A stretch of 64,000 nucleotides of DNA from Acidimicrobiia bacterium (GTDB lineage: Bacteria; Actinomycetota; Acidimicrobiia; Spongiisociales; ZC4RG35): NCBI GenBank assembly GCA_028284765.1, contig JANQRA010000003.1:144500-208499 (forward strand). Direction: 5' to 3'. The position numbers and the translations under genes are program-made. Positions within the stretch are counted from its first letter, which is position 1, and each line of letters opens with the position of its first letter. Below are positions 3,548 through 34,653 of this stretch, one piece after another. The notes beneath the pieces were generated by a model that worked only from the letters and a program-made list of their open reading frames with translations, had not been told where the DNA came from and made no database searches.

Positions 3548-3855
3548 TGGCAGACCAGAAGATCAGGATCCGCTTGAAGGCTTACGACCACAACGTGGTC
3601 GACGAGTCCTCAAAGAAGATCACAGAGACGGTGCTCCGCACCGAGGCCAAGATCAAGGGCCCGGTGCCGCTCCCAACGGAGATTCACCGCTACTGCGTGA
3701 TTCGCGGTCCGCACGTGCACAAGACAGGCCGTGAGCACTTCGAGATGCGGATACACAAGCGTCTCATCGACATCCTCGAGCCGACCCCGAAGACGGTCGA
3801 CTCGCTGATGCGTCTCGAGTTGCCGGCTGGTGTCGAAGTCGAGATCAAGCTCTAA
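3547..3855 (+). CDS. rpsJ: 30S ribosomal protein S10
   Basis: 102 aa, [15 protein letters not shown]... The ATG overlaps the tuf TAA stop (TAATGG). Confidence 0.95.
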
Positions 3856-10466: not shown

Positions 10467-10864
10467 CACTCGTTACAGATCCCATCGCCGACATGCTCAC
10501 CCGCATCCGCAATGCAGTTGCGGTGGGTCATGAGCGGGTTGCGATGCCGTCATCCAAAATGAAAGTCAATATCGCCCAGATCCTGGTTGATGAAGGATTC
10601 ATCGACCGGTTTGAAGTCGCCGAAGAGGGTCATCGTCGTGAGCTGGAGCTCGTGTTGCGTTATGCCGACCGTCGTCGCTCGGTCATAGAGGGCCTGCGGC
10701 GGATCTCCCGCCCCGGTCACCGCGTCTACCGCGGCGCCCAAGAGCTCCCTCGTGTCCAAGGTGGTCTCGGTGTGGCCGTCGTCTCCACGAGCCAGGGGCT
10801 CATGGCGGACCGAGAGGCTCGCAAGCGTCGTTTGGGTGGCGAGATCATCTGCGAGGTGTGGTGA
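10460..10864 (+). CDS. rpsH: 30S ribosomal protein S8
   Basis: [19 protein letters not shown]... Confidence 0.95.
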
Positions 10865-11406
10865 TGAGCCGCATCGGTAAGAAGCCGATCGACGTGCCCA
10901 GCGGAGTCGACATCAAGATCGATGGTCAAGACGTGGTCGTGAAGGGCTCCAAAGGAGAGCTCAGCCGCACGTTCAACGAGCGGATCGGGTTCGAGATGGA
11001 AGATGGTGTTCTCACCCTCACCCGTCCTGACGATTCACGTGAGTCACGTGCTCTGCACGGTCTCAGCCGGGCCCTCCTCAACAACATGGTTGTTGGTGTG
11101 TCCGACGGATTCGTTAAGGAGCTCGAGATTCACGGCGTGGGTTACCGCGCCACCCTCAAAGGCAAGGACATCGAGCTTTTGGTCGGTTTCAGCCACCCCG
11201 TCAACGTCCAGGCCCCGGAGGGCATCACGTTCGAGGTACCCGAGCAGACCAAGATCGTCGTCTCGGGTATCGACAAGGAGTTGGTCGGCCAGGTTGCGGC
11301 CAACATCCGCAAGGTCCGTCCCCCCGAGCCCTACAAGGGCAAGGGCATCCGCTATGTGGGCGAATACGTCCGCCGCAAGGCCGGAAAGGCAGGTGCCACC
11401 GCATGA
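10864..11406 (+). CDS. rplF: 50S ribosomal protein L6
   Basis: [15 protein letters not shown]... The ATG overlaps the rpsH TGA by 1 nt. Confidence 0.94.
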
Positions 11407-11756
11407 GAGGTACCCGTTTGGACGCCCGTAGCCGGAGACACAACAGGGTTCGTAAGAGTGTGCGTGGCACACCGGAGCGCCCCCGTCTCGCGGTCTACAG
11501 GTCTAACAAGTACATCTACGCCCAGGTCATCGATGACCACGAGGGCCGAACCCTGGCAGCAGCGTCGTCACAGGAGTCAGACCTCCGTGGCGAAGGTCTC
11601 ACTTCCGAGACTGCAGCCAAGGTCGGGACACTCGTCGCCGATCGAGCGAAAGAAGCCGGAGTCAGCTCCGTCGTCTTCGACCGGGGTGGTTACAAGTATC
11701 ACGGAAGATTGAAGGCCCTCGCTGACGCCGCGCGAGAAGCCGGTTTGGAGTTTTAG
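11403..11756 (+). CDS. rplR: 50S ribosomal protein L18
   Basis: 117 aa, conserved L18. Confidence 0.93.
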
Positions 11757-11758
11757 GA

Positions 11759-12331
11759 ATGGCACGTCAAAACAGACCAGGCTCCGAGCAGAGCCAGTAC
11801 GACGAGCGCGTCATCCAGATCAACCGTGTAGCCAAGGTGGTCAAGGGTGGCCGCCGCTTCAGCTTCACTGCGCTGGTTGTCGTCGGAGACGGCAAGGGCA
11901 AGGTTGGAGTTGGTTACGGGAAGGCCAAGGAAGTGCCTGCTGCCATTCAAAAAGGAATCGAGCAGGCCCGGCGCTCCATGGAGGTCGTGCCAATGGCCGG
12001 CCAGACCATCATCCATCAGATCACCGGCACTCACGACGCTGCAAGCGTCTTGATCAAGCCGGCAGCTCCCGGTACCGGTGTCATTGCCGGTGGCGCGGTG
12101 CGTCAGATCCTCGAAGCCGCAGGCATCAAGGACGCTTTGGCCAAATCGTTGGGGTCTCCGACCCACCTCAACGTGGCCAAGGCAACGATGAATGGGCTCA
12201 TGGGCCAGCGTCGTCCTGACGAAGTCGCCAGGCTTCGTGGGAAGAAAGCCGAGGACATCACTCCTCCTGGCCTGCTCGCCGCCTACAACACGACGGAGAA
12301 CCTGCGGGCCACTCCGAGTGAGAGCAAGTGA
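11759..12331 (+). CDS. rpsE: 30S ribosomal protein S5
   Basis: 190 aa, [25 protein letters not shown]... Confidence 0.95.
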
Positions 12332-12531
12332 CCATGGCCAAGACGAAATCCCAGACCGTGAAAGTGACTCTCCGTCGCAGTGTCATCGGCGAAAAGCCGA
12401 AGACCAGGGCGACGGTTGAGGGGCTCGGTCTGCGCAAGATCAATCAGACAGTCGAACACACCGACTCCGAATCGCTTCGAGGCATGCTGGCAAGGGTCAG
12501 ACACCTCGTAGAGGTAGAGGACAACTCATGA
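12328..12531 (+). CDS. rpmD: 50S ribosomal protein L30
   Basis: 67 aa, [10 protein letters not shown]... Confidence 0.9.
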
Positions 12532-12983
12532 GTGACAAGAAAGAACAGCTGAAGCTGCACCACCTGTCGCCCGCCCCCGGATCGAAGAAGAAGAAGATCC
12601 GTGTGGGACGTGGTGAGGGTGGTCGTCGTGGCAAGACAGCCGGTCGTGGCACCAAGGGTCTCAAGGCCCGCAACACGCTTCGTCCGGGGTTCGAGGGTGG
12701 TCAGACGCCACTCGCGATGCGGCTCCCGAAGCTCAAAGGCTTCAACAATCCCAACAAAGAGACCTTCGCCATCATCAATGTCGAGACCTTGAATACCTTC
12801 CGGGCCGGGTCCGAAGTGACCCCTGAGAAACTGCGTGAGCAGGGTCTCATCAGGCATCGGGGGCGTGTGAAGGTTCTCGCCGAGGGTGATCTCGAGAAGA
12901 AGCTCACGGTCAAGGCGCATGCATTTAGCGCGTCGGCCCGTGAGAAGATAGAGGCTGCCGGCGGGACCGCCGAAGTCATCTAG
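12528..12983 (+). CDS. rplO: 50S ribosomal protein L15
   Basis: 151 aa, [34 protein letters not shown]... Confidence 0.94.
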
Positions 12984-13006
12984 CTCAACACGACCAGAAA
13001 CTTCTG

Positions 13007-14320
13007 ATGCTTTCCATCTATCGCAACATGTTCAAGATCCCGGACCTCCGGGGGAAGATCCTCTTCACCCTGGCCATGTTCGGGGTCTACCGACTCGGTG
13101 CCACCATTCCGGTGCCCGGAATCGACCTCGACGCCGTCGAGCTGTTCCAGGCACAGCAAACGGCCGGTGGCATCTACGGCTTGCTCAACCTGTTCTCAGG
13201 TGGGGCCTTGGAAGGTTTCTCGGTGTTCGCACTGGGGATCATTCCCTACATCACCGCCTCCATCATCATGCAGCTGTTGACTGTGGTCATTCCACGTCTT
13301 CAGGCTTTGCAGGAGGAGGGTGAATCGGGACGCAAGGTGATCACTCAGTGGACCAGATACATGACGGTCATCCTGGCGTTGATCCAGTCGACCGGTTTCA
13401 CGTTCCTCTTCCATTCAGGACAGTTCACCGGTGGGATCGACCTCATCCCCAATTACACGCCCGGTCGCGTGATCCTGATCGTTCTGACGATGACCGCCGG
13501 TACCGCCATGGTCATGTGGCTCGGTGAGCTCATCACCCAGCGAGGTGTCGGGAACGGAATGTCACTGATCATCTTCATCTCGATCATCAGCCAGTTCCCG
13601 TTCGTGTTCGGTCAGATCTACGGCCAGACCTGGGCGACCGGTTTCGCCATCAGGTTCATCATCATGATGGCTGTGTTCCTCCTGATGGTCGTTGCGATCA
13701 TCTACGTGGACCAGGGTCAGCGGAGGATCCCGATCCAGTTCGCCAAACGTGTCCGTGGCCGTCGAGTGATGGGTGGTCAGTCCACCTACATCCCTCTGAA
13801 GGTCAACACGGCAGGTGTCATCCCGGTGATCTTCGCCACTTCCGTTCTGCTGATTCCGTCGCTACTCGTCACGGCCATTCCGTCTGACGCCGACTGGATT
13901 CAGATCGCCCGGCGTTGGATTGACGAGAATCTCGGTGGAGGTGGCCACTCCGTCAGCTGGTGGTACATCGGCATCCTGTTCGCACTGATCGTGTTCTTCA
14001 CTTACTTCTACACGGCCATCCAGTTCGATCCCGATCAGCAGTCTGAGATGATTCAGCGTCAGGGTGGGTTCATCCCTGGCGTCCGTCCCGGACGTCAGAC
14101 TGCAGCACATCTGCGCCACATCCTCAACCGGATCACCCTGCCCGGATCGATATTCCTGGCCACGATCTCTGTGTTGCCGGCGATTGCCGGAGCCATATGG
14201 AATCTCCAGATCGCATTCTCTGGAGTCTCGATTCTGATCGTGGTTGGCGTGGGCCTGGAGACGATGAAGCAGATCGAATCCCAGCTCACGATGCGTAACT
14301 ACGAAGGAATACTGACCTAG
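13007..14320 (+). CDS. secY: Preprotein translocase subunit SecY
   Basis: 437 aa, 10 transmembrane helices, conserved SecY. Confidence 0.96.
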   Translation: MLSIYRNMFKIPDLRGKILFTLAMFGVYRLGATIPVPGIDLDAVELFQAQQTAGGIYGLLNLFSGGALEGFSVFALGIIPYITASIIMQLLTVVIPRLQALQEEGESGRKVITQWTRYMTVILALIQSTGFTFLFHSGQFTGGIDLIPNYTPGRVILIVLTMTAGTAMVMWLGELITQRGVGNGMSLIIFISIISQFPFVFGQIYGQTWATGFAIRFIIMMAVFLLMVVAIIYVDQGQRRIPIQFAKRVRGRRVMGGQSTYIPLKVNTAGVIPVIFATSVLLIPSLLVTAIPSDADWIQIARRWIDENLGGGGHSVSWWYIGILFALIVFFTYFYTAIQFDPDQQSEMIQRQGGFIPGVRPGRQTAAHLRHILNRITLPGSIFLATISVLPAIAGAIWNLQIAFSGVSILIVVGVGLETMKQIESQLTMRNYEGILT

Positions 14321-14862
14321 TGCGTCTTTTGTTCATCGGCCCTCCGGGGGCAGGCAAAGGCACACAGGCCGGCAAGGTCGCCGCACGACTTGGCATTCCT
14401 CACGTGTCGACCGGTGAGATGTTTCGGGACCACGTTGCCAGAGACACGGATCTCGGCAAGCAGGTGAAGGCAATCATGGAGGCCGGCGATTACGTGCCGG
14501 ACGAAGTCACTGTCGCCATGCTCTCAGAGCGGATCTCTCAGCCCGACGCCGAGGGCGGATACATCCTCGACGGGTTCCCCCGCACCGAGGCCCAGGTTGC
14601 GGCCCTCGACGATCTCCTGGGTGATCAAGGGCTGGACAGGGTTGTCGTGTTCGATGTCGATGAAGATGAGCTCGTCGATCGTCTCCTCGCTAGGGGACGC
14701 GCCGACGACACCGAGGAGACGATCCGCGCACGCTTCGGTATCTACCAGGAGCAAACCCAACCCCTCTTGGACATTTACGGCGAGCGAGGCTTGAACGTCT
14801 TCGTCAATGGTCTTGGTGAAGTTGAAGAGGTCAGCGACCGAATACTCTTGGTCTTGACATGA
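14320..14862 (+). CDS. adk: Adenylate kinase, short form without zinc-binding lid
   Basis: GTG start overlapping the secY stop. P-loop GPPGAGKGTQA. Confidence 0.93.
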   Translation: MRLLFIGPPGAGKGTQAGKVAARLGIPHVSTGEMFRDHVARDTDLGKQVKAIMEAGDYVPDEVTVAMLSERISQPDAEGGYILDGFPRTEAQVAALDDLLGDQGLDRVVVFDVDEDELVDRLLARGRADDTEETIRARFGIYQEQTQPLLDIYGERGLNVFVNGLGEVEEVSDRILLVLT

Positions 14863-15647
14863 TCAGCATCAAGAGCCGCCGCGAGTTCGCCAAGATGCAG
14901 AAGGCGGGGGCGTGTGTTGCGGATGTCCATCGTCGGGTCCGTGAGGCAGCGGCGCCTGGTGTCTCTCTCCTGGAACTGGAAGAGATTGGTGCCTCCACTA
15001 TCGCCGAGCACGGCTGCACGTCGTCCTTCCTCAACTATTTGGGCACCTATCCGGCGACACTCTGTCTCTCACCCAACGATGTGATCGTCCACGGAATCCC
15101 CAATGAGTACCGGCTCCAGGAAGGCGACATCCTGTCGGTGGATGCGGGTGCGATCTTCGAAGGCTTTCATGGCGACGCTGCGTTCACCATGCCCATTGGA
15201 GAGGTGTCCGCTGAGGCGCAGCACCTCATCGACACCACTGAGGCCGGCATGTGGGCCGGTATCCGCGAGGTTCGCAAAGGAAATCGGCTCGGCGACATCG
15301 GCGCTGCCGTCGCCGCCATCGGTGATGCCCACGGGTATGGGGTTGTCGAGGAGTATGTCGGTCACGGCATCGGCAGGGAGATGCATGAAGAGCCGCAGGT
15401 CCCCAACTATGGAGAGCCGGGCAAAGGTCTCAAGCTGAAGACCGGGATGGCGCTCTGCATCGAGCCGATGTTCAACATCGGACAGCGTTTTACCAAGGTG
15501 GACGCTGACGGCTGGACGGTTCGGACCAACGACGGTTCACTCTCTGCCCACTGGGAACACATGGTGGCCATTACGCCCGACGGACCGATGGTGTTCACAG
15601 CAGCTCAGGATCCAGTGCCCGTCGACGAGGTTCACGCGACGCAATGA
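14859..15647 (+). CDS. map: Methionine aminopeptidase type I
   Basis: 262 aa, metal-binding residues conserved. ATGA overlap with adk. Confidence 0.93.
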   Translation: MISIKSRREFAKMQKAGACVADVHRRVREAAAPGVSLLELEEIGASTIAEHGCTSSFLNYLGTYPATLCLSPNDVIVHGIPNEYRLQEGDILSVDAGAIFEGFHGDAAFTMPIGEVSAEAQHLIDTTEAGMWAGIREVRKGNRLGDIGAAVAAIGDAHGYGVVEEYVGHGIGREMHEEPQVPNYGEPGKGLKLKTGMALCIEPMFNIGQRFTKVDADGWTVRTNDGSLSAHWEHMVAITPDGPMVFTAAQDPVPVDEVHATQ

Positions 15648-16003
15648 GCTCTGGGTCTCTCTACGAGATCCGTGACTACCACTATCGACGCGACCTCATG
15701 GATGAGTACCGCTCCTGGACGGTCAAGGCACTCAAAGTGCTGGAACCGAAGATGGACCTGGTCGGCTGGTGGCTCGATTCAGGTGAGGAGCCCAGAGTGA
15801 TGGGTTCAGATCCGATGGAGATGCCCCACGGTTCGGCCAACGTCACGTGGATCATCCGTTGGGACAGCCTCGACCAACGTGAGAAGCGATGGGACGCGCT
15901 CTGGACCGAGCAAGACTGGCTCGACGTCTGGGAAGAGCACCCCGGGTTCGAGGGCTACCACCAGTTGCTGGTTCGCTTCATGGAGAAGATCGAACCGGTC
16001 TAG
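15644..16003 (+). CDS. NIPSNAP family protein
   Basis: 119 aa. LYEIRDYHY... and W(I)IRWDSLDQREKRWDAL... match the NIPSNAP fold signature. The start overlaps the map stop (ATGA). Confidence 0.75.
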   Translation: MSSGSLYEIRDYHYRRDLMDEYRSWTVKALKVLEPKMDLVGWWLDSGEEPRVMGSDPMEMPHGSANVTWIIRWDSLDQREKRWDALWTEQDWLDVWEEHPGFEGYHQLLVRFMEKIEPV

Positions 16004-17202
16004 GCAGGAAGGGCACTCTCGGGATCGTCGAGGTGCATCCACCGATAGGCCGCGGTGAACCATGTGCCGGCCAAAACAACCAGCAATGCCAAAAGCATCA
16101 GCCACGGTGCCGGTTGCCACCAACCGATGAAGAGAACTAGCGCTGCCGCGGCAGTCAGAGTCCCGGCGATCGGGCCGTACAGCTCTGGTACACGTTCGTA
16201 ATCCTGCAGGGTGCGGGCGACCAGTACGAGCCAGAGCAGACCGGCGGCGATTGCTCCACTCATCAACCAGGCCGTGCCGGCAGGCACGTGATCGTCCGTG
16301 GCGTGTTCGACCATGCTCACCATGGCCGCTCCGGCTGCAGCGATCGCAAGCGTGACTGGGAGGTGGCCAAAGATCCAGCGTGTTCGGTCGAGCGAGTTGG
16401 CTCTTGGGTGGCGCCGCCCGACGAAGTCAAAGTACGACCACCAGAAGGCGAAGCCGATCATCAAACCGAGCATCCCGGTCACCACGACGATTGGTGTCAG
16501 GTCGGTAGAGCCCAGACCGTCGACCACCCCAACCACAACCTCGCCGAGCACGATGATCGTGAACAGTCCGAACCTCTCGACGAGGCTGTCCGTGGTGTCG
16601 AAGTCGATGCCCGAGATTGTCTCTTCACGCCGAACGATCACCATTCCGGAGACGATGTACAGCAGGACGAAACCGCCCCACACCCAGACCCGGGCTCCCT
16701 GAGGAACCCAGATAGTGCCAAACATGACAGCCGTGAACACAACGGAGGCACCGATGTATTGGGCGGTGATCCGGTTGTACTCGTCTGAGTCCTGCCTCCG
16801 AACGCCGTACCAGAGCAGAGTCAGCAACCCCATGAAGATGCCGTAGACCAGAGCGAATTCCTCACCGGTCTCCGTCGGTGCGCCCTCGGTGTAGACAGCC
16901 AGCCAAGCGAGCAGGAGCATCTGGGCAAAGACCATGGTTCGAGTTCGCCCGTCTTCGCGTCCATGTAGGTCGTAGTAGAGCGTGCCGTTCAGCCACCCGA
17001 GCCAGATGAGCCCAAAGATCGCTGCGAAGTCGACGACACCTTGCCAGCTGATGTTGTGGGCCAAGCCGTGCGCCGCCTGGGCAACCACGACCACATATAC
17101 GAGGTCGTAGAACAGCTCGAGGAAACTGACCGACCGGTCTTCGATTACTTCGCCATGTGCCCTGGGTGGTAACCAGAATCGCCTTCGGAACTCACTCGGC
17201 AT
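16000..17202 (-). CDS. Low-temperature-requirement A (LtrA)-like polytopic membrane protein
   Basis: 400 aa with about 10 transmembrane helices. The N-terminal VSFLELFYDLVYVVVV motif is characteristic of the LtrA family. Confidence 0.6.
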   Translation of the reverse strand: MPSEFRRRFWLPPRAHGEVIEDRSVSFLELFYDLVYVVVVAQAAHGLAHNISWQGVVDFAAIFGLIWLGWLNGTLYYDLHGREDGRTRTMVFAQMLLLAWLAVYTEGAPTETGEEFALVYGIFMGLLTLLWYGVRRQDSDEYNRITAQYIGASVVFTAVMFGTIWVPQGARVWVWGGFVLLYIVSGMVIVRREETISGIDFDTTDSLVERFGLFTIIVLGEVVVGVVDGLGSTDLTPIVVVTGMLGLMIGFAFWWSYFDFVGRRHPRANSLDRTRWIFGHLPVTLAIAAAGAAMVSMVEHATDDHVPAGTAWLMSGAIAAGLLWLVLVARTLQDYERVPELYGPIAGTLTAAAALVLFIGWWQPAPWLMLLALLVVLAGTWFTAAYRWMHLDDPESALPA

Positions 17203-17220
17203 GGAGCGAGATTGTAAGGC

Positions 17221-17682
17221 CTATTGGTGGGAAGCAACCTGCTCTTCTGCAGCTTTGGCCAGATCATTGACGAGCCCGTTCAGAGCCTTGGGCAGCCCCT
17301 TCTCCAGGCGCTTCGAAACTGTGCCCTTGAGGATTCCACCCTTGGGTTCCGCGGTGGTCTCCATGGTTATCTCGGTCTTGTCGCCATCCAGCGCCTTGAC
17401 GGTGAACGTTGTATGCGAGCTCTTCACCGGCATCCCCTTGGGAACGACATCGAGAGTGATCGACTCACCTTCTTCCCATCCAGTGACGGTCTCAATCGTC
17501 GAGCCGAAGGGGGCCAGTTCGCAGGTGCGAACCGTTCCGAGACCGGTTGCTTGATCTCCTTGGATTTCGCTGGTCTTCACCTGGTCGGTCCAGGAGGCGA
17601 TGTTGCCGAAATCGGCGAGTATGTCCCAGACGACCTCTTTTGGTGCGCTGGCGACGGTGGTTCCCTTGAGTTGGACAGTCAT
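17221..17682 (-). CDS. SRPBCC (polyketide-cyclase/START-like) ligand-binding protein
   Basis: Called from the internal ATG (MTVQLKGTTVASAPKEVVWDILADFGNIASW...). Typical Polyketide_cyc2 pattern. Confidence 0.7.
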   Translation of the reverse strand: MTVQLKGTTVASAPKEVVWDILADFGNIASWTDQVKTSEIQGDQATGLGTVRTCELAPFGSTIETVTGWEEGESITLDVVPKGMPVKSSHTTFTVKALDGDKTEITMETTAEPKGGILKGTVSKRLEKGLPKALNGLVNDLAKAAEEQVASHQ

Positions 17683-17703
17683 TGATCTTCCTTTCTTGAC
17701 TGG

Positions 17704-17752
17704 TCGGTCTAATATAGACACAACAAGAACGATCAGTCAAGAATGTTCTAGG
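17704..17752. promoter_or_regulatory. Candidate TetR operator: imperfect 12-nt inverted repeat in the divergent promoter region
   Basis: TCTTGACTGGTC at 17704-17715 and GATCAGTCAAGA at 17741-17752 are reverse complements with 1 mismatch. They sit between the SRPBCC and TetR genes. Confidence 0.35.
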
Positions 17753-17760
17753 ATCAGCAA

Positions 17761-18348
17761 ATGGCACGCACCAGAGAATTCGACACGGAAGACGCCGTAG
17801 CCCAAATGGCACAGGCGTTTTGGCGTAATGGCTACGACGCAACGGGTGTTGCCGAATTGGTTGACGCCACCGGTGTGGGCCGGGCGAGCCTCTATGGAGC
17901 GTTCGGTTCGAAGCGCGACATGCTGGAGCGCTCGCTTGACTGGTACCTCGACGAGACCATCGAACCCCTGGTCGTATCTCTCGAGTCGGGTCTCGATGCG
18001 ATCGAGCAGCGATTCCTCATGTTCGGGAAAGTCCTAGAGGCCATGCCGGAGCGTGCCCGGCTCGGTTGCATGATGGTCAACGTTGGGAGTGAGGTGGGGA
18101 GTGTCGACGAGCAGTTGGGGGTGAAGGCCGGCTCCTATCGCGATCGCTTTCGACTTGCCTTTGAGCGTGGGCTGACCGCCGCAGTGGAGGCTGGCGATAT
18201 CGAGGGACCTGTCGAAGGCCGTGCTCAACTCTTGACGTTGCTGATGATGGGCATGTTTGTTGCCATACGCAGTGGAGGAACTGTCGAGGAGATCACGGAG
18301 TTGGGAGCTGCAGCCCAGGCTGAAGTGCGATCCTGGAGAGTCAGCTAG
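17761..18348 (+). CDS. TetR family transcriptional regulator
   Basis: N-terminal HTH GYDATGVAELVDATGVGRASLYGAFGSKRDML. Transcribed divergently from the SRPBCC gene. Confidence 0.9.
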   Translation: MARTREFDTEDAVAQMAQAFWRNGYDATGVAELVDATGVGRASLYGAFGSKRDMLERSLDWYLDETIEPLVVSLESGLDAIEQRFLMFGKVLEAMPERARLGCMMVNVGSEVGSVDEQLGVKAGSYRDRFRLAFERGLTAAVEAGDIEGPVEGRAQLLTLLMMGMFVAIRSGGTVEEITELGAAAQAEVRSWRVS

Positions 18349-18728
18349 CTATCGAGCAGGTAGTCGACGAGAGCGTCGACTTCTTCCATTGTCAGCCGGA
18401 GAGTGGGCATCTCGACCTGCGCTCCAAAGTCGGGGACGATGAACGCTTGCGGGACTAGCAGTGACTGCCGAACATATCCGTCAGCCGAGAGACCGGATAC
18501 GCGCTCTCCCGCCAAAGCAGCGAGATCGGTCAGGTTGGGGCCAACGTTTGTCTGACTCACCTGGCGAGGCCCGGCGTGGCAGCCGACGCAGCCTTTCGTT
18601 CGGAAGATGCTCTCTCCATCGGCAACCGTGAGCTCAGTTGAAGGGGGCTCGTCGTCTGTGAGCACGACCACGGATGCGACAGTCAGGCCGATGGTGAGAA
18701 TCAGCCCGATTGCCAACCTAGGGGTCAC
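18345..18728 (-). CDS. Membrane-anchored class I c-type cytochrome
   Basis: 127 aa. N-terminal transmembrane helix, CVGCHAG heme motif, and a distal Met (EMPTL). Confidence 0.85.
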   Translation of the reverse strand: MTPRLAIGLILTIGLTVASVVVLTDDEPPSTELTVADGESIFRTKGCVGCHAGPRQVSQTNVGPNLTDLAALAGERVSGLSADGYVRQSLLVPQAFIVPDFGAQVEMPTLRLTMEEVDALVDYLLDS

Positions 18729-19222
18729 GCTGTTGCCTGGTGTCCGCTTTCTCTTCTGATGCGGATCAGTTCGGCGACCGTGAACATGGCGGTGAGCACA
18801 GCTGCGATGGGGAGTATGAGCTCGAGTGGCTCGATACCGGTGCCTTGTGGCGCAGCGATCGCCGCATCCGAGACTTCTACGGTGCCCATCTTCTGGATTT
18901 CCCAGCTGTCGCTGTTCACGCCCCAGGTCCAGCTGCCCTCACTCAAAGTCACCTCCACGGAGTACCGGCCCTCGCCCAGATTGGTGGCCTCGAAGCGCTG
19001 TACCTCTCCACCTTTGCCGCGGAACACCGCTTGGGTGTCGCCGGCATCAATCGGTGTTTGCCCGTGTGCGAGATAGGTGTATTCGAGGGTGTAAGTGGTG
19101 TCAGGCTCAAATGTGCCCGGAACAGAGTCCATCGAGATGATTCCCCATCCACCCGCGCTTGCGGCGAGCGGTAGGAGCGTCAAGGCAGCTACTAGGCCGA
19201 TAGCGGTCAGGGTCTTTCTCAT
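18725..19222 (-). CDS. Exported protein with signal peptide and C-terminal transmembrane anchor, function unknown
   Basis: Start from the internal ATG at 19222-19220 (MRKTLTAIGLVAALTLLPLAASA...). The C-terminal helix is LILPIAAVLTAMFTVAELI. The 398-aa ORF-track extension upstream has no coding character and overlaps the next gene. Confidence 0.6.
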   Translation of the reverse strand: MRKTLTAIGLVAALTLLPLAASAGGWGIISMDSVPGTFEPDTTYTLEYTYLAHGQTPIDAGDTQAVFRGKGGEVQRFEATNLGEGRYSVEVTLSEGSWTWGVNSDSWEIQKMGTVEVSDAAIAAPQGTGIEPLELILPIAAVLTAMFTVAELIRIRRESGHQATA

Positions 19223-19803
19223 CTGAGCTCTCCAATCTCTAGAGCAACGTGTCTTGTTCTTGGCTGGTTCCTGAAGATGAGATATGTGATCGAGGCTACG
19301 CCGATGATTGCAAGGAGACCGAAGGGAAGGTTCCATTCGGGTTTCGGCTGGGTGCTGGAGTATGAGAACCCGAGTGCCTCGAGCGTGCCTTCGAGATCTC
19401 CTTCGACCCGGTGCCAGCCGATCGCATCGCCTCCCCACCCGTCGAGACCGGGTTGTTTCGGCGTGTGGATCACCGGGCCATCTTTGGCGCCGAAGTAGAT
19501 GTGTTGTTCGATGCTGTACGGCTCGCCCCAGGTAAGAGTGATCGGTTCTCCCAGGTCGGATGGCTGGTCGATCTTGACTGCGAGGTGCGAGGCGAACCAG
19601 ATGCCGCTCATCTCCATCAGCTTGTTGAGGTTCTCTTGGGCTTCGCTGGTGTATGGCTGTCGGCTGAATAGCTCGATTGGTTCTTCGATCCCAGGGCCCG
19701 AGATGGTCGCTTTCGCCGGTCCCTTCGCAAAGGCCGGTATAGCTAGAAACCATGTCATGGCGACGATCGTTGCAATCAGAGTGATCCGTCTCATCACCAC
19801 CAA
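19219..19803 (-). CDS. Exported protein with signal peptide and C-terminal transmembrane anchor, function unknown
   Basis: 194 aa. Signal peptide MRRITLIATIVAMTWFLAIPAFA, C-terminal helix LLAIIGVASITYLIF. The stop overlaps the start of the downstream gene. Confidence 0.6.
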   Translation of the reverse strand: MVVMRRITLIATIVAMTWFLAIPAFAKGPAKATISGPGIEEPIELFSRQPYTSEAQENLNKLMEMSGIWFASHLAVKIDQPSDLGEPITLTWGEPYSIEQHIYFGAKDGPVIHTPKQPGLDGWGGDAIGWHRVEGDLEGTLEALGFSYSSTQPKPEWNLPFGLLAIIGVASITYLIFRNQPRTRHVALEIGELR

Positions 19804-19859
19804 TACACCGCCGATGACTGCAAGGTTCCCGGAACCTTCTCAACCTGGGCGGTGTAGTT

Positions 19860-20429
19860 GTGGGTGAAGTATCGGTGGAGGGCCGTCCGCTGAATGAGTC
19901 GGAGCTTGTTGCCAATGCCAAGAACGGAGATCTGGCCTCATATGAGCAGCTGGTCAGAGAGCACCAGACGATCGCCTTTCGCGTCGCCTACGTCGTCGTT
20001 CGGGACCACTCGGAGGCAGAAGACGTGACCCAGGATGCTTTGGTCAAGGCACATCACAATCTCAATCGTTTCAAAGATGGCTCTCCTTTTCGGCCTTGGC
20101 TTCTGAAGATCGTGCGCAACGAAGCCCTGAACCGTCGACGTGGTCTCGGCAGACGGGAGGCGATGACTCTCCGCCATGCGGTGGATCCGTCCTCGGGAGG
20201 TGCGGCCCCATCTCCCGAGACGGCTGTGGTCGATGCCGAAGATCAACGGGCCGTTCTCGAAGCACTCGATCGTCTCCCCGAGAGGTATCGAAGTGTCCTC
20301 GCAGCTCGGTTCTTGCTCGATCTGAGCGAAGAGGAAACGGCAACGATGCTCGGGGTGGCAAAGGGGACCGTGAAGTCACGCACCTCCCGTGGCCTGGAGA
20401 AGATGCGATCGATGTTGGGAGAGTCATGA
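19860..20429 (+). CDS. ECF (group 4) RNA polymerase sigma factor
   Basis: 189 aa. Sigma region 2 (DVTQDALVKAHHNLNRF...FRPWLLKIVRNEALN) and region 4 (GTVKSRTSRGLEKMR) are present. Confidence 0.9.
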   Translation: MGEVSVEGRPLNESELVANAKNGDLASYEQLVREHQTIAFRVAYVVVRDHSEAEDVTQDALVKAHHNLNRFKDGSPFRPWLLKIVRNEALNRRRGLGRREAMTLRHAVDPSSGGAAPSPETAVVDAEDQRAVLEALDRLPERYRSVLAARFLLDLSEEETATMLGVAKGTVKSRTSRGLEKMRSMLGES

Positions 20430-21097
20430 TCGACATCGAGCGCGCACTCAGGACGACAGAACTGGAATGGCCGGAAGCGGATGTCGCGGATCGTGTCATG
20501 CGCCGGGTTCGTGAACCTCGGTCGATGGATTTGCGCTGGCTGCGACCTGCCCTGGCCGTAGCTGTTGCGATGATCTTGCTTGTGGCGACTCCGCCCGGTC
20601 GTCAGGTTGTCGCCAACGTCCTGGAAGTCGCTGGCATCGAGATCGGTTGGGGAGATGTGGCGGCTGGCGTTGACTTGGAACTAGGTGAGGAAGTGGGGCT
20701 AGCCGATGTCGAGGGTCTGATTCCGGCGGACGCACCTGATGCCGTCTATGAGATGGACGGATATGTTCACATTGTTTGGTTCGGGGGTGGTGATCTTCCG
20801 GCGGCGGGAGACTTCGGCGTCGCCGTTCTCTACACCCAGAGCCAGGGGACCATTTTCACCAATGCGCTGAAGACTCTCGGCCCCGACACGGACATCCAGC
20901 CGGTGTGGGTGAGAGGTGTCGAAGGTGTGTGGATCGAAGGTGCTGAGCACAACGTCGAACTGGCAGGTCAGGAGGTTCGCCTGGCAGCAAACGTCCTGCT
21001 TTGGCAGGAGGGTTCTACCGCACATCGAATAGAGACCACGGGCGCCTTAGAAGAGGCTTTGGAGTTGGCCGAATCCCTCAGCCAACCAGCCCCGTAG
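20426..21097 (+). CDS. Putative anti-sigma factor: single-pass membrane protein with an extracytoplasmic domain
   Basis: ATG at 20426 overlaps the sigma-factor stop (ATGA). Short cytoplasmic N-terminus, transmembrane helix ALAVAVAMILLVA, then a ~170-aa extracytoplasmic domain. No ZAS HxxxCxxC motif. Confidence 0.6.
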   Translation: MIDIERALRTTELEWPEADVADRVMRRVREPRSMDLRWLRPALAVAVAMILLVATPPGRQVVANVLEVAGIEIGWGDVAAGVDLELGEEVGLADVEGLIPADAPDAVYEMDGYVHIVWFGGGDLPAAGDFGVAVLYTQSQGTIFTNALKTLGPDTDIQPVWVRGVEGVWIEGAEHNVELAGQEVRLAANVLLWQEGSTAHRIETTGALEEALELAESLSQPAP

Positions 21098-21170
21098 AAC
21101 CCCTCGAACCTGCATGGCGTTGCGCCTGGCGCGACGCTGTGCAGGCTCGACGAATGAGGCTCGATCAGAT

Positions 21171-21198
21171 TTGCCCACCACCGAGGCACAAGTACAAT
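21171..21198 (+). promoter_or_regulatory. Sigma-70-like promoter candidate for the rpmJ-rpsM-rpsK-rpsD-rpoA-rplQ operon
   Basis: TTGCCC at 21171-21176, a 16-nt spacer, then TACAAT at 21193-21198. A ~145-nt 5'UTR precedes rpmJ. Confidence 0.4.
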
Positions 21199-21347
21199 GA
21201 CCTGGTCTTTGCCGCTTTTTCTTGGCCGAAGAGCGGTTACTAGCCAGGGCACCGTCGCCCGCAACCACCTAAACGCTCCGGTTGCACCTGACTGTGGCCT
21301 GGCGTCGCACGCGTCCGTGTGCGATCACTGAAACAGGAGTAAACACG

Positions 21348-21461
21348 ATGAAGGTAAGACCTTCCACAAAGAAAATGTGTGAGAAGTGTCGGATCATCCG
21401 GCGTCGTGGCCGCGTCTGGGTGATCTGCGAGAACCCACGTCACAAGCAGCGACAAGGTTGA
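21348..21461 (+). CDS. rpmJ: 50S ribosomal protein L36, zinc-ribbon type
   Basis: 37 aa, [37 protein letters not shown], with a C-x2-C...C-x4-H motif. Absent from the ORF track because it is under 60 aa. Confidence 0.92.
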
Positions 21462-21466
21462 ACTGA

Positions 21467-21844
21467 ATGGCACGAATTGCAGGAGTGGATATCCCAAGGG
21501 ACAAGCGTCTCGAGATCTCACTCACATACATATACGGAATCGGGTTGACGACGTCGCAGGCCATCTGTGATGCGACCGACATCGACCCCTCAACGAGAGT
21601 CCGGTCACTGACCGACGATGAGGTGGCCCGCATCCGGCGCTACATCGAGTCGGAGTACAAGGTCGAAGGTGACCTGCGCCGTGAGGTTCAGCAGAACATC
21701 AAGCGCAAGATCGAGATCGGCAGCTACCAGGGCATCCGCCACCGCCGTGGCCTCCCGGTGCGTGGCCAACGCACCCACACCAACGCCCGTGGCCGCAAGG
21801 GTCGTCGTGTCGCCATCGCCGGCAAGAAGAAGGTGACCAAGTGA
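21467..21844 (+). CDS. rpsM: 30S ribosomal protein S13
   Basis: [26 protein letters not shown]... Confidence 0.95.
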
Positions 21845-22236
21845 CGTCGAATCAGGGCGCCAAGAGGGTCCGTCGTCGCGAGCGTAAGAACATCTCGCAC
21901 GGCCAGGCTCACATCAAGGCCAGCTTCAACAACACGATTATCAACATCACCGACCTCAACGGGAACAGCGTCGCCTGGACCTCCGGAGGCTCGGTTGGAT
22001 TCAAGGGATCCAGGAAGTCCACCCCCTACGCCGCACAAGTCGCAGCCGAAGAGGCAGCCCGTCGTGCCGGCGAGCACGGGATCCGCAAGCTCGACGTCAT
22101 CGTCGCCGGCACAGGTTCCGGTCGTGACACCGCAGTGCGCACCCTCCAGAACATGGGCATGGAAGTGACCTGGGTCAAAGACGTGACGCCGATGCCGCAC
22201 AACGGTGTGCGTCCCAAGAAGCGGAGACGTGGCTGA
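21841..22236 (+). CDS. rpsK: 30S ribosomal protein S11
   Basis: GTG start, [20 protein letters not shown]... Confidence 0.94.
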
Positions 22237-22841
22237 TGGCTCGGAACACAGGGCCCAAGTGCAAGGCGTGCCGTCGGGCACGCACCCAACTCTGCCAGTC
22301 GAAGACTTGCGCCGTCGACCGTCGTCCGTACCCCCCGGGTGAGCACGGTCGTGGACGGATTCGTGAGTCCGACTACCAAATCCAGCTCCGTGAGAAGCAG
22401 AAGCTTCGCACCATGTACGGCGTGCTCGAGAAGCAGTTCCGCCGTTACTACAAGGAGTCGGCACGTCGTCCGGGAATCACCGGCGACAACCTTCTCCAGA
22501 TGCTCGAGCAGCGTCTCGACAATGTGGTGTGGCGCTCAGGCATGGCGGCCACAAGGCCCCAGGCCCGTCAGCTGGTCAACCACGGTCACTTCACCGTGAA
22601 CGGCAAGAAGGTCGATATTCCGTCCTATCAGGTTCGTCCTGGTGACACCGTCAAGGTGAAGGACAAGTCCAAAGACATCATCGTCATCCAGCATTCGGTC
22701 GACACCCAAGATCGGGTTGTCCCCGCCTGGATGTCGGTCAACACCGACGACCGCCAGATATCCGTAAACGATCATCCCCGCCGGGATCAGATCGACACCG
22801 ACATCAACGAGCAGTTGATCGTCGAGCTCTACTCGAAGTGA
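22236..22841 (+). CDS. rpsD: 30S ribosomal protein S4
   Basis: 201 aa with N-terminal zinc ribbon CKACRR...C. Confidence 0.94.
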   Translation: MARNTGPKCKACRRARTQLCQSKTCAVDRRPYPPGEHGRGRIRESDYQIQLREKQKLRTMYGVLEKQFRRYYKESARRPGITGDNLLQMLEQRLDNVVWRSGMAATRPQARQLVNHGHFTVNGKKVDIPSYQVRPGDTVKVKDKSKDIIVIQHSVDTQDRVVPAWMSVNTDDRQISVNDHPRRDQIDTDINEQLIVELYSK

Positions 22842-22851
22842 GGTAATCGAG

Positions 22852-23802
22852 TTGCTGATTGTTCAACGTCCCCAAATCGAAATCGAGGAAGCCCACAACA
22901 ACAGGGCAAGGTTCGTCGTAGAACCGCTGGAGCCCGGGTTCGGCTACACCCTCGGCAACACGATGCGTCGCACGCTGTTGAGCCGGATCCCCGGCGCAGC
23001 CATCACGTCCATCCAGATCGAAGGTGTCGAGCACGAGTTCTCGACCATCTCCGGTGTGGTTGAAGACGTCGTCGACATGATTCTCAACATCAAGAGGATC
23101 GTTGTCACCCTGGAAGGCGTCGACGAGCAGGTGCTCTATCTGTCGGCCAAGGGTGCCGGCGATGTGAAGGCCAAAGACCTCAAGCTCCCGGCTGGTGTCG
23201 AGGTCGTCAACCCCGATGCTCACATCGCAAGGCTCAGTGCCTCGGGCCGTCTCGAGATGGAGCTCACCGTGGCTCCCGGAGTCGGATACCGCACGGCAGA
23301 CGGAAACAAGGGTGGCTCCAGCGCCATCGGTGTGATTCCTGTCGACTCGATCTTCTCGCCAGTGCGCAAGGTCGCCTACCGCGTCGAGAACACACAGGTC
23401 GGTCAGATGACCAACTACGACAAGCTGGTCATCGATGTCGAGACCAACGGTGCGATTGAGCCGAAGGACGCCGTGTCGTCCGCCGGCAAGACACTTGGTG
23501 AGCTGATGGACATCTTCGCCGAGGTCGGACAGGGTGAAGGTCTGGAACTGGTCGACGTGGTCCCCGAGGCCACCGGCTCCCCGGACCTCGAACTGCCAAT
23601 CGAGGCACTCGATCTTTCCGAGCGTCCCCGCAACTGCCTGCGTCGTGCTCAGGTCAAGACTGTTGGTGAGCTCGTGGAGCGCACCTCCGATGACCTGCTC
23701 AACATCACGAACTTCGGTCAGAAGAGTCTCGACGAGGTCATCGCCAAGCTCGACGAGCTGGGCCTGAGCCTCGCTGACTCGCCGGCAGGAAGCACCGTCT
23801 GA
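22852..23802 (+). CDS. rpoA: DNA-directed RNA polymerase subunit alpha
   Basis: TTG start, 316 aa, conserved alpha N-terminal and C-terminal domains. Confidence 0.95.
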
Positions 23803-24152
23803 TGCCACGCCCTCGTAAGGGCCCGCGGTTTGGCGGCTCTCCGGCGCATGACAGGCTGATCATGGCCAACCTGGCCACGGATCTGTTCATGCACGAGAAG
23901 CTGACCACGACCGAGGCCAAAGCCAAGGCTCTGCGTCCCTATGCGGAGAAGCTGATCACCAAGGCCCGCCAAGGTGATTTACACGCACGTCGCACCGTGA
24001 TGAAGACCATCACTAACAAGGAAGCCGTGCACAAGCTCTTTGAGGATGTCGCCCCTCGTTACGAGGACCGGCCGGGTGGCTACACCCGTATCACCAAGCT
24101 CGGTCCCCGGCGTGGGGACGGTACCGAAGAGGCGATCATCGAGCTCGTCTAG
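23802..24152 (+). CDS. rplQ: 50S ribosomal protein L17
   Basis: 116 aa, [25 protein letters not shown]... Confidence 0.94.
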
Positions 24153-24203: not shown

Positions 24204-24232
24204 GGGCGACGGGAGTAGGGTCCTCACTGTCC

Positions 24233-27200
24233 GTGACTATCAGGAGACCCATGTTTCGTCGTTCCGTGTCCGTCCTGTCCGTAATGGCGATGGTCTTCGC
24301 TCTGGTGGTGGCACCGTTCCCAGTCGAAGTTGATGCCGCGGCCTGTACGCCGACCGGAACCGCGGTGACAACTGAACCTGAACTTCAGGCCGAGATGGTG
24401 CTGGCTAATGCTGCGGGTGCGGACTACACGATCTGTGTCGACCCCGGTACATATCTGATCACAGCGACCCTGGACTACACCGGCACCGACACCCTGACCA
24501 TCATCGGAACCGGACCAACAGCAGACCTCCACATCCTCGACGGACAAGACACCAGACAGATACTTACCACCACAACAGGATCGCTCACTCTCAACACCCT
24601 CCAATTCCAGAATGGGGTCTCCACTGAACATGGAGGTGCGGTCAGCGCGAGCGACGCGTCAGGCACCGGGTTGAACTTCAACGTGATCGACTTGTCCTTC
24701 GTCGATAACGATGCGCCGGAATTCGGTGGTGGCGCCTTTCTCGATTCAGACTTTGCGAGTGGTGGTGTTGTTTCCGTGATTGACTCCACATTCACTGGGA
24801 ACACGGGCGGCAACGGCGGGGGTCTCTACGTTGACGGTGGCGCCGGTCAGGACATCGTGTCTGGTAATACGTTCACGGGAAACGCTGCTGACGACACGGC
24901 CGGACCTTCGTTTGGTAACGGTGGGGGTCTCCACGTCGACCGGTCACGAGCACTGCTGATTAGCGACAACTCGTTCACGATGAATACTGCAGTTGAGGGC
25001 GGCGGTGCGTTCGTGCGGCGCTCCAGCGAGGCATCTATTGCAGACAACTCGTTCACGCAGAATTCGGCCACAGGAGACGACGGCGGGGGAGGCCTGTTTG
25101 TCGACAACACCGAACCCGCGACCATCGACTCGACCTTCACCAACAACACTTCCACAGTTGAAGGCGGAGGTCTTTCGATCGACCGGAGCGGTGACGACGG
25201 CGCCGTGCAGATTCTCGGAGCGTTCAATGGGAACAGCGGCTCCTCAGGGGGAGCGATATTCATCGATCGAAGCGAAAGCACCACGATCACTGCCAGCTTC
25301 GACGGCAACACCGCAACCGGGCCACTCGGCGACACGGTCGGTGGCGGAGCGCTGCATATCAATGCCAATGCTGACAATGAGTTTCTGATCGATGGCAGCA
25401 CGTTCACCGGCAACTCGTCTACGAATTCGCACGGGGGAGCGATTCTCGTGACTGCTTCGTCGGAGCCCGTGTCCATAGTCGACTCGACGTTCACCTCGAA
25501 CAACGCAGCCGAAAACGGCGGTGCGATTGGGGCCACGACGTTGACGGCGACACTTTCTGTCACCGGCTCTGATTTTGATTCCAATGGAGCTGGGCAATAC
25601 GGCGGTGCGATTGACACCTGCTGCGTGGCTGACCTCGGAGATGTGACGATCAGCGACTCCACTTTCGATCAGAACACAGCCGGGCAGTCAGGAGGCGCTG
25701 TTCGCCAATGCTGTGGTGAGCCTGGCACCACAGCATCCTTGACGGTTAGCGACTCGACATTCACCAACAACGAGGCAGGATTGACGTCGGGCGGGGCCAG
25801 GGGTGGCGCGATCTACCAATGCTGCGAGGTCGGGGACACAACTATTGCTGATTCCACGTTCATCGGGAACAAGGCCCTCGACGCTTCTCTTAACGACTTC
25901 AACGCCGGAGGCGCTGTAGCCACGTCCAGCGAAGCTGGTGACGTGACCATCACGGGTTCGATGTTCCACGAAAACGAAGCGACGTTCGATGGAGGTGCGG
26001 TGCGGATCTGCTGCGGCGAATCCATCGAGCTCACCGTCGCGGATAGCACCTTCACATCGAATGAGAGCGGGGCCTTGGGTGGTGCCATCAGCCTCGACTC
26101 TGTTGCCGCGGGCAACGGCGAGATGTCCGTCACCAACTCGTACTTCGAGGACAACTCCGCCGAGGAAGGTGGAGGCGCCATCGGGGTTAGCTCGTTGCCA
26201 GACTCCGTGCTGAGCCTTGCCGATTCGACATTCGTCGGCAACTCGTCACCAGGGTTCGGGTCCGCAGTAAGCATCAACAGCAGTGCGGGGGCGACAGTTG
26301 ATGCAGTTCGTGTCGTCTTCGACGGCAATACGGCCACCGAGGACGACGGCGGCGCATTGTTCCTGAGAAGCATTGGGTCGGCTGTAGTCGAATACTCCCT
26401 GTTCAGTGAGAACACGGCCGTGGGTGATGCCGGCGGAATGAAAGTCAACGACGTGGACGACATCACGATCCGCGGCACGACCTTTGTCGGCAACTCGGCC
26501 GGTGACGCTGGCGGTGCCTTCGCACAGATCCGGTCTAACGCGCTCATCGAGAACTCGACGTTCGTCGGAAACTCTGCTGGCGAGGACGGCAACCTATATC
26601 AGGCAAACAACGACGCCGGATACGACGGGGAGGTCGCGCTGATCCATGTCACAGCGGGCGCCGACCAGGACATCTTCTTGGAGTCAAGTGGTGGCGGCTC
26701 GTCGACCCTCAACGTGACCTCCTCCGTTCTCGCTGGTTGCAGCGGTGGGACGACGGTTTCGGGTGGTCACAACTTTGATACGGACGGCGCTTGTGGTTTG
26801 GGCGGTCCGGGTGATATTGCGGGTGCGGATCCGTTGTTGGGTCCGTTGGCTGATAACGAAGGGAAGACTGCTGGTGCTCCTGGCATGGAGCGGGTGATTC
26901 AGACGATGTTGCCTGGGTTGTTGTCTCCGTTGGTAAATGCTGGTGCTTCGTTGCCTACTGATCAGCGTGGGGTGGCTCGTCCGTACGGGTCGGCTCCTGA
27001 TATCGGGGCGGTGGAGTTCGTGTTCGACCCGCCTGCTAACTACGACCCGTTCACTGATGATGACGGCAGCATTTTCGAGAATGACATTGAGTGGATTGCT
27101 TGGCATGGGATCACCCGTGGGTGTAATCCGCCGGCGAACACTCTGTTCTGTCCGGGTAATGATGTGAGCCGTGAGGCGTTTGCGGCGTTGATGAGCCGGG

Positions 27201-34627: not shown

Positions 34628-34653
34628 TGGGTCAACTGAAGTGACATAAGAGA

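Follow-up and report, generated by a model that had tools for sequence, protein, structure and literature searches.

Probable in-place decay of infA into a conserved leader of the rpmJ operon, beside a variable insertion site, in the ribosomal super-operon of an Acidimicrobiia bacterium

The subject of this analysis is the junction between map and rpmJ in the ribosomal super-operon of an Acidimicrobiia bacterium (contig JANQRA010000003.1), as found in a stretch of 64,000 nucleotides that is referred to throughout as the window. Read along the + strand, the order of genes is secY, adk, map, nine non-ribosomal genes, a gap of 251 bp, and then rpmJ, rpsM, rpsK, rpsD, rpoA and rplQ. The gene infA, which encodes translation initiation factor IF-1 and in relatives with the canonical arrangement lies between map and rpmJ, has no reading frame here. 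The explanation that we regard as probable combines two elements, namely a decay of infA in place, into what would now be a conserved leader of rpmJ, and an insert lodged at an operon boundary that is variable between lineages. The insert is ordinary genome plasticity; it is the decay of infA in place, with a surviving leader, that is the unexpected part, and the features that bear most directly on it are the following.

13007-14320, + strand: secY
14320-14862, + strand: adk
14859-15647, + strand: map (methionine aminopeptidase; Pfam PF00557, E 2e-47), the final gene of the spc-type operon and the left border of the variable site
21098-21348: gap of 251 bp before rpmJ, holding a promoter and the infA remnant
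21171-21198, + strand: sigma-70-type promoter TTGCCC-16-TACAAT, from a consensus scan
21203-21348, + strand: infA remnant of about 145 nt, a predicted structured 5' leader of rpmJ (nhmmer and alignments)
21349-21461, + strand: rpmJ
21349-24152, + strand: rpmJ-rpsM-rpsK-rpsD-rpoA-rplQ operon, the right border (open reading frames (ORFs), 78-98% identical to those of relatives)

An intact infA would be expected to appear as a frame of about 72 amino acids with an S1-like OB fold, and there is none in the window: tblastn searches of the whole 64 kb using the IF-1 proteins of E. coli, B. subtilis and M. tuberculosis found no infA, the best match (E 0.065) being in an unrelated place. It follows that IF-1 must come from a gene elsewhere, and on both counts the initial annotation of this DNA was right. 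The wider distribution was established using a synteny set of 80 loci around Map homologues, one genome per species, in each of which both the flanking and the nine insert genes were located. The window's Map is 75-88% identical to those of 23 Acidimicrobiia species representatives, and among the 23 closest species (L003-L025) infA is missing from all 19 of the junctions that are visible; in 11 of these the spacing between map and rpmJ is only 160-235 bp, and the nine insert genes are missing from all 19. Five more loci (L030, L032, L035, L037 and L038) are likewise without infA. Overall, an infA ORF was found in 0 of 24 genome junctions of infA-less lineages and 0 of 25 metagenome junctions, and there are about 50 related map-to-rpmJ junctions that carry the remnant or lack infA. 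Since the ORF is also missing from relatives that have no insert, its absence is a trait of the clade and independent of the insert. The canonical map-infA-rpmJ order is kept in eight loci of a related Acidimicrobiia lineage, in which Map is 64-66% identical.

Two observations on public records may be added here. The contigs labelled 'uncultured Gammaproteobacteria' (L022) and 'uncultured Acidobacteriota' (L025) have secY-adk-map of the Acidimicrobiia type, 75-86% identical to the window, and these bins are probably mislabelled or contaminated. One public gene call (P0111, 110 aa) consists of IF-1 fused to L36, a fusion that probably arose from a sequencing or calling error where the infA stop overlaps the rpmJ start.

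The initial annotation had noted a long intergenic region before rpmJ and had taken infA to be simply absent, or displaced by the insert. The gap is indeed 251 bp long, but it is not empty. When a DNA profile made with nhmmer from 13 intact infA genes and the 70 nt preceding each of them was used for searching, it matched the window at 21192-21319 (E 3.8e-3), and same-strand, syntenic matches were obtained in relatives with E values of 2.7e-19 (L032), 7e-11 (L016), 5.5e-9 (L012), 8.8e-5 (L010), 1.8e-4 (L003) and 2.7e-3 (L122), so that nucleotide homology (E 2.7e-19 down to 3.8e-3) and synteny with the infA of relatives are found together. A covariance model of the element upstream of rpmJ also matches inside the intact infA of L029, L034 and L036, because the element is colinear with the infA promoter, its 5' untranslated region (5' UTR) and approximately codons 1-38; there then follows an internal deletion of 70-100 nt, and after it the last 15 or so nt of infA. 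At the level of individual bases the alignment is colinear from the -10 box through ...GGTGGCCTGG..GCTCGCGCACGTC, with the deletion next and TGGAGA-ATG last, and the Shine-Dalgarno sequence of rpmJ is supplied by those last ~15 nt of the former infA. What is missing is a start codon after the promoter, together with about codons 40-66. Among lineages that appear to have lost the frame separately, the end points of the deletion differ while the same segment is retained, L032 being the clearest case. Displacement by the insert is thus not what is seen: a truncated, degenerate remnant sits upstream of rpmJ, and it does so also in relatives without an insert.

The promoter belongs to the same picture. 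Its -35 and -10 boxes are conserved across relatives, where it has the strongly conserved form TTGAGC-17-TAnCAT upstream of rpmJ, and the -10 box is also found ahead of intact infA; on this evidence the element at 21171-21198 is to be read as the former infA promoter, now the predicted promoter of the rpmJ operon.

Two other candidate identities for this DNA were tried and given up. A divergent infA ORF in the gap, sought after frame correction in line with the initial annotation, was rejected, there being stops in every frame and indels that shift it, and it was the non-coding relic that was found instead. The idea of the leader as a novel element unrelated to infA was dropped after the model matches and alignments to intact infA.

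Whether the conserved stretch might encode a small protein of some other kind, or an independent small RNA instead of a leader, is a separate question. A 44-codon ORF does run over 21197-21331, but its ATG lies inside the -10 box and is missing in L003, L004, L005 and L011, while across relatives the frame is not open and differs by one-nucleotide indels, which rule out a conserved ORF; a scan for terminators between the structure and rpmJ found none, contrary to what an independent small RNA would lead one to expect. We would give such an explanation hardly any credence.

How the remnant has evolved can be judged by comparison with sites that are free to change. Comparison of the window with seven other species gives 75-90% identity over the remnant core, whereas the four-fold degenerate sites of rpsM, rpsK, rpsD, rpoA, map and secY are saturated, at 40-51% identity; a neutral pseudogene would have been expected to diverge at roughly the synonymous rate, and this one has not. 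Conservation is highest in the middle ~70 nt, downstream of the promoter and ahead of the Shine-Dalgarno sequence, where nine species are nearly invariant. As judged from these comparisons, the remnant is under strong purifying selection.

The same segment has a conserved predicted structure. Its fold energy is -60.7 kcal/mol (z -2.4), and in a model-fitted alignment covering 11 species pairing extends to 92% of cells, with compensatory change in 14 of 35 pairs; 0 of 500 shuffles matched these values for pairing and covariation, and controls in which the structure was slid along the alignment gave 28-41%. Compensatory changes occur in helices 1 and 3, and the third hairpin is less conserved, 78% of its cells being paired (in L008, at 3447-3741, about 90 nt are inserted in this hairpin, the core remaining intact). 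In a 13-pair outer helix, 89% of cells pair when 16 sequences, remnants and intact in-cluster infA together, are considered (slid controls, 20-44%). This helix is predicted in single-sequence folds of the intact in-cluster infA of sister lineages, and is absent from those of stand-alone infA genes, of Actinomarinales and of outgroup loci.

An alternative that must be weighed at this point is that the remnant is a neutral pseudogene, the apparent conservation of which comes from its overlap with the rpmJ promoter and ribosome-binding site. These elements must certainly persist at this spot, the third hairpin is poorly conserved, and no Rfam family matches. All the same, conservation peaks in just that central part that lies outside the promoter and the Shine-Dalgarno sequence, the gulf between remnant and neutral sites is that given above, helices 1 and 3 carry compensatory changes, and the same segment has been kept despite the differing deletion ends; we therefore consider this alternative unlikely.

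The properties that a leader should have are for the most part those that were found: conserved structure with covariation (in 11-16 sequences, one of the alignments being model-fitted), and a predicted location between a promoter and the first gene of a ribosomal-protein operon, within the 5' UTR. From the fact that the main helix is already there in the intact in-cluster infA of sister lineages, we infer that the remnant has been retained as a cis-regulatory RNA that formerly overlapped the 5' part of infA. Its ligand would most likely be a product that the operon itself encodes, such as S4. The 5' end of the leader, GGTCTT (21203-21208, conserved), is complementary to AAGACC in codons 3-5 of rpmJ (21356-21361), and the first rpmJ codons (21351-21365) contain a perfect 6-bp hairpin, GAAGGT-AAG-ACCTTC; either this pairing or this hairpin could mask the start region of rpmJ.

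If infA no longer encodes a protein at this site, some other gene must do so. A set of 186 Acidimicrobiia-like IF-1 sequences falls into two sharply separated types with no intermediates, the canonical type LAHVSGKMRMRYIRI (98 sequences) and a second type, LARA[AS]GKMRRGR.IRI (83 sequences), the GKMRRGR loop of which has a one-residue insertion relative to Thermus IF-1. In the second type (proteins P0098-P0189) LARA[AS]GKMRRGR replaces LAHVSGKMRMR, and the extra residue falls in the conserved GKMR-x-YIRI segment, which aligns with Thermus IF-1 of 30S complexes and lies in the region that contacts the 30S subunit. Genes of the GKMRRGR type were solitary in all seven look-ups, representing six neighbourhoods away from ribosomal genes and including two contigs of 2.77 Mb, one with a circular-type name suffix; genes of the canonical type stood in map-infA-rpmJ in three of three. 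A stand-alone paralogue of the GKMRRGR type probably supplies IF-1 in the window's organism, to judge from these patterns. The window's ORFs and the stand-alone infA loci had nothing in common, and GC content did not discriminate.

The second element of the explanation concerns the nine genes between map and the old infA promoter, which, with the signals between them, are as follows.

15644-16003, + strand: NIPSNAP-like gene (PF07978, E 2.3e-7), with an ATGA overlap with the map stop seen in the sequence
16000-17202, - strand: LtrA-family membrane protein (PF06772, E 1e-60), convergent with the NIPSNAP-like gene
17221-17721, - strand: SRPBCC/polyketide-cyclase-like protein (PF10604, E 2e-17); the public gene call begins at 17682
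17693-17743: 18-nt inverted repeat (89% complementary) with promoter-like hexamers on both strands, between the SRPBCC and TetR genes
17761-18348, + strand: TetR-family regulator (PF00440, E 3e-11)
18345-18728, - strand: membrane-anchored mono-haem cytochrome c (PF00034, E 2e-6; CxxCH), third gene of an operon for exported proteins
18725-19222, - strand: exported protein of 165 aa, with signal peptide and C-terminal membrane anchor
19219-19794, - strand: exported protein of 191 aa, with signal peptide and C-terminal anchor, first gene of that operon
19829-19804 (- strand) and 19831-19856 (+ strand): two back-to-back promoter motifs of the extracytoplasmic function (ECF) type, GGAACC-N13/14-CGGTGTA, one per operon
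19860-20429, + strand: ECF sigma factor, regions 2 and 4 (PF04542 and PF08281, E 1e-15)
20426-21097, + strand: putative anti-sigma factor, 223 aa, a single-pass membrane protein with the hydrophobic stretch WLRPALAVAVAMILLVATPPG, its start overlapping the sigma stop

The family labels that the initial annotation had given to these genes are confirmed by Pfam, and the ATGA overlap of map with the NIPSNAP-like gene that it reported is plain to see. The public gene calls come from contig L001 (Logan assembly of SRR20820731), which is identical to 8.7 kb of the window. For the 165-aa and 191-aa exported proteins no Pfam or NCBIfam match was found, and a metagenome scan for close relatives of the 191-aa protein returned none; the TetR regulator matched named NCBIfam equivalogs weakly. 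From the arrangement of the genes, the NIPSNAP-like gene is probably read through and translated as the tail of the spc operon, and the inverted repeat at 17693-17743, between the divergent SRPBCC and TetR genes, is likely to be the TetR operator.

That this boundary is variable emerges from the relatives. A scan of JGI metagenomes with the remnant core gave 34 contigs; every one long enough to display the flanking genes is a map-rpmJ junction, and none has infA. Depending on the relative, the interval between map and the old infA promoter holds different cargo or nothing, the cargo found (with labels read off the sequences, not taken from profile searches) being as follows.

L126 and L142: DUF4389-like gene
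L131, L137 and L144: MarR-like and ankyrin-like genes
L014 and L017: aminotransferase-like gene
L009: P-type-ATPase-like gene
L135: secreted proteins without assigned family, 3.1 kb
L030: DinB-like and histidine-kinase-like genes

In other junctions map is separated from the promoter by 0.3-0.7 kb of unassigned sequence. In L003 (10772-10985), L008 (3218-3445) and other gaps of 0.3-0.5 kb there is a common stretch that translates to similar peptides (RAITRAIKAPNWAG...), which may be a small gene or another remnant. In L041, an Acidimicrobiales bin, 4.8 kb (10732-15579) separate map from an intact infA, so that the same boundary is used even where infA survives. The window's load of 5.5 kb is the largest in its own clade and second overall after that of L030. 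Insertion hotspots are places where variable accessory cargo sits between conserved core genes, and the present site resembles them in having variable cargo at one fixed boundary with highly conserved flanks; it differs in lying inside the ribosomal super-operon and in having no recombinase, repeats or tRNA.

The window's insert is, on the following comparisons, best described as a mosaic of a right-hand five-gene module and four left-hand genes. The right-hand module (the cytochrome c operon with the ECF sigma/anti-sigma pair) occurs at the junction in the window, L122 and L146 only, out of about 50. In L146 the order is map, cytochrome c, 165-aa protein, 191-aa protein, ECF sigma, anti-sigma, remnant and rpmJ, without the four left-hand genes; the module is also present in L122, which of all relatives is the closest (S11 98% identical; 77.5% identity at the nucleotide level). 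As for the left-hand genes, metagenome contig L142, which has no ECF module, carries ahead of its infA remnant an LtrA 61% identical to that of the window, and the NIPSNAP-like gene is missing from all related junctions examined.

One might suppose from the fact that none of the 23 most closely related species representatives in the collection of genomes has the block, and from its accessory content of regulators, membrane proteins and exported proteins, that it is a mobile genomic island acquired recently. A search of the insert for an integrase or transposase domain, for direct or terminal inverted repeats, for a tRNA and for a compositional break found none of these, its GC content (57-63%) being like that of its surroundings, and the right half occupies the same place in L122 and L146 with deep protein divergence. 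A recent island is accordingly very improbable, and the initial annotation, which had argued against one and had seen no flanking repeats, is upheld in both respects.

The module itself has the marks of an old one. Its proteins are 36-77% identical between these genomes (for the 191-aa protein 44-51% in L122 and 36% in L146; for the 165-aa protein 67% and 48% respectively; for cytochrome c, at the L146 junction, 54%), whereas the ribosomal proteins are 82-98% identical, from which it follows that the module is old and fast-evolving. The motif GGAACC-N13/14-CGGTGTA occurs twice, as mirror images, in the 65-bp interval between the sigma gene and the divergent operon, one copy directed at each operon; both are kept in the window, L122 and L146 with differing spacers, and the start codons lie 3 nt beyond each motif. 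From a putative autoregulatory promoter with a GGAAC-like -35 box, the sigma factor would thus be expected to drive its own operon together with the divergent one, giving leaderless messages. The protein has sigma-70 regions 2 and 4 only (TIGR02937, 98.6 bits against a cut-off of 42.9). Compared with solved structures it is closest to SigH, SigW and SigE, with SigL (6dv9) ninth, and there is no SigL equivalog among its best 25 NCBIfam matches; on these comparisons it belongs with ECF factors in general and has no particular likeness to SigL. Its putative anti-sigma factor has homologues directly after the sigma gene in L122 and L146, but Pfam, NCBIfam and structure searches found for it no family, anti-sigma domain or solved relative, and there is no HxxxCxxC zinc motif, the cytoplasmic part MIDIERALRTTELEWPEADVADRVMRRVREPRSMDLR being without His or Cys. 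Known ECF modules (SigW, SigE, SigL-RslA) are similar in having sigma regions 2 and 4 only, a coupled membrane-spanning partner downstream, and a GGAAC-type -35 box 5' of the sigma gene itself and of a neighbouring operon; the present one differs in that the partner has no recognisable anti-sigma domain or zinc motif, the sigma is not a SigL orthologue, and the target operon, for two novel exported proteins and cytochrome c, is undescribed.

These results bear on the view put forward in the initial annotation, that infA had simply moved and that the junction is an old, lineage-wide home for envelope-stress genes, like that of sigL-rslA after mapA in mycobacteria (the order in M. tuberculosis being mapA-sigL-rslA). 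In its favour are the presence of the module at the junction in three species-level lineages, with proteins so diverged (36-77%) that it cannot be recent, and the lack of any marks of an island. Three of about 50 junctions is, however, a poor showing for such a home, the others being empty or holding unrelated cargo, and no leftovers of the module were found in the short gaps of the other relatives' junctions. The likeness to sigL-rslA is one of position only, given what was said above of both proteins, and even the position is loose, the sigma gene being 4.2 kb from map in the window and not directly downstream of it as had been described. Moreover, infA was not excised, since its remnant has been left in place. 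For all these reasons we doubt that this view is correct.

Two features outside the junction deserve brief mention. Directly after rplQ, at 24233-27598 on the + strand, there is an ORF of 1121 aa with Chlamydia-PMP repeats; L122 is without this 3.4-kb region, the alignment jumping from 24207 to 27611 of the window, which by this comparison is a second lineage-specific insertion at an operon end. Secondly, a search of the whole window against Rfam at the gathering score found nothing but a glmS ribozyme (RF00234, 98 bits) at 34643-34811 on the + strand, directly 5' of glmS (34861-36687) and preceded by a phosphoglucosamine-mutase-like gene (33281-34627).

Taken as a whole, the proposed course of events would be as follows. 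In an ancestor of a large uncultured Acidimicrobiia group, the in-cluster infA would have lost its reading frame, leaving behind its promoter, its 5' UTR, a degenerate version of about codons 1-38 and the last ~15 nt with the ribosome-binding site of rpmJ. This remnant of about 145 nt would now form the multi-helix 5' leader of the rpmJ-rpsM-rpsK-rpsD-rpoA-rplQ operon, maintained as a cis-regulatory RNA and as the target of an operon product such as S4, while IF-1 would be provided by the diverged stand-alone paralogue of the LARA[AS]GKMRRGR type in another part of the genome. Between the map stop and the old infA promoter there would be a transcriptionally neutral site with highly conserved genes on either side, at which different lineages accumulate different accessory genes; in the window these would be the right-hand module, in which the ECF sigma/anti-sigma pair drives itself and the divergent operon for two exported, membrane-anchored proteins and cytochrome c, and the left-hand part, with a NIPSNAP-like gene reached by read-through from map, LtrA and the TetR/SRPBCC pair. 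As to why the segment should have survived, it is conceivable, though we put it at somewhat less than an even chance, that infA was lost while a regulatory RNA structure within its first ~38 codons survived, the GKMRRGR paralogue having taken over, and that the frame was lost independently in several Acidimicrobiia lineages, each keeping the same segment as a leader of the rpmJ-rpoA genes.

All this said, several points weigh against the proposed explanation. In neighbour-joining trees the infA-containing lineage falls inside the infA-less ones (and L032, which is infA-less, clusters with infA-containing species in two trees), so that the number of decay events could be one, or three to four. 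When contigs were matched by sample accession and by metagenome-assembled genome (MAG) accession prefix, no link was found to the working infA of this genome or of any other with a remnant junction. The window's own nhmmer match (E 3.8e-3) is modest, and the case for homology leans on synteny and on the intermediate relatives. The covariation alignment has 11 rows only and was fitted by the model itself, and the outer helix of the intact genes could partly reflect amino-acid constraints. An Rfam search of 21000-21500 at E values up to 10 gave no match to Alpha_RBS, S4-Clostridia, S4-Fusobacteriales or any other family, and the promoter and leader status of 21171-21348 is a prediction from sequence. 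Lastly, the ECF module is distributed patchily on a five-protein tree, from which ancestry with losses and transfer between relatives are not distinguishable.

It is useful to set the proposed leader beside systems already known. Leaders of the S4 type ahead of alpha operons have been listed for Clostridia and Fusobacteriales, that is for other phyla, and none for Actinobacteria (PMC7247131). The remnant resembles these and the Alpha_RBS of E. coli in being a structured 5' leader ahead of an rpsM-rpsK-rpsD-rpoA-rplQ operon, and in being conserved and covarying within one bacterial lineage; it differs in matching no Rfam family, in preceding rpmJ, and in deriving from infA coding sequence. As regards the decay itself, the nearest parallel is in plastids, where Millen et al. 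in 2001 reportedly described how infA has repeatedly become a pseudogene while the nucleus holds a working copy. Pseudogenes of infA and 'parallel losses' are reportedly also a subject of PMC4579063. There too the same gene, in the same conserved ribosomal cluster beside rpl36/rpmJ, decays in place more than once, with IF-1 coming from another locus; here, in contrast, the organism is a free-living bacterium, the replacement would be a paralogue in the same chromosome, and the Acidimicrobiia remnant appears to be under purifying selection and not freely decaying. A third comparison is with E. coli and other Proteobacteria, the infA of which lies outside the ribosomal cluster, and in our synteny set loci labelled as Proteobacteria (L054), Anaerolineae (L062) and Myxococcales (L070) are also without infA between map and rpsM. 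The likeness lies in a solitary IF-1 gene away from map and rpmJ; we know of no infA remnant at the old site in lineages of this type, whereas the old site in Acidimicrobiia keeps a conserved one.

In our literature search no account emerged of infA having decayed or moved in Acidimicrobiia. If the proposed explanation is true, an essential and universal gene would have proved replaceable by a paralogue, with the old copy recycled as a regulatory leader; and if, beyond this, several lineages lost the frame independently and each kept the segment, it would be a new class of ribosomal-operon leader with its origin in coding sequence, and a bacterial counterpart of what has happened repeatedly to infA in plastids. 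The remnant is in any event a candidate new leader RNA for the operon encoding S13, S11, S4, the RNA polymerase alpha subunit and L17, none having been described in the phylum, while a distinct IF-1 subfamily with an altered conserved loop is flagged, and the clear footprint of its promoters makes the ECF module a small, testable regulon of exported redox proteins. A missing infA in Acidimicrobiia bins would, finally, be real biology and not incompleteness, which bears on estimates of genome completeness from marker genes.

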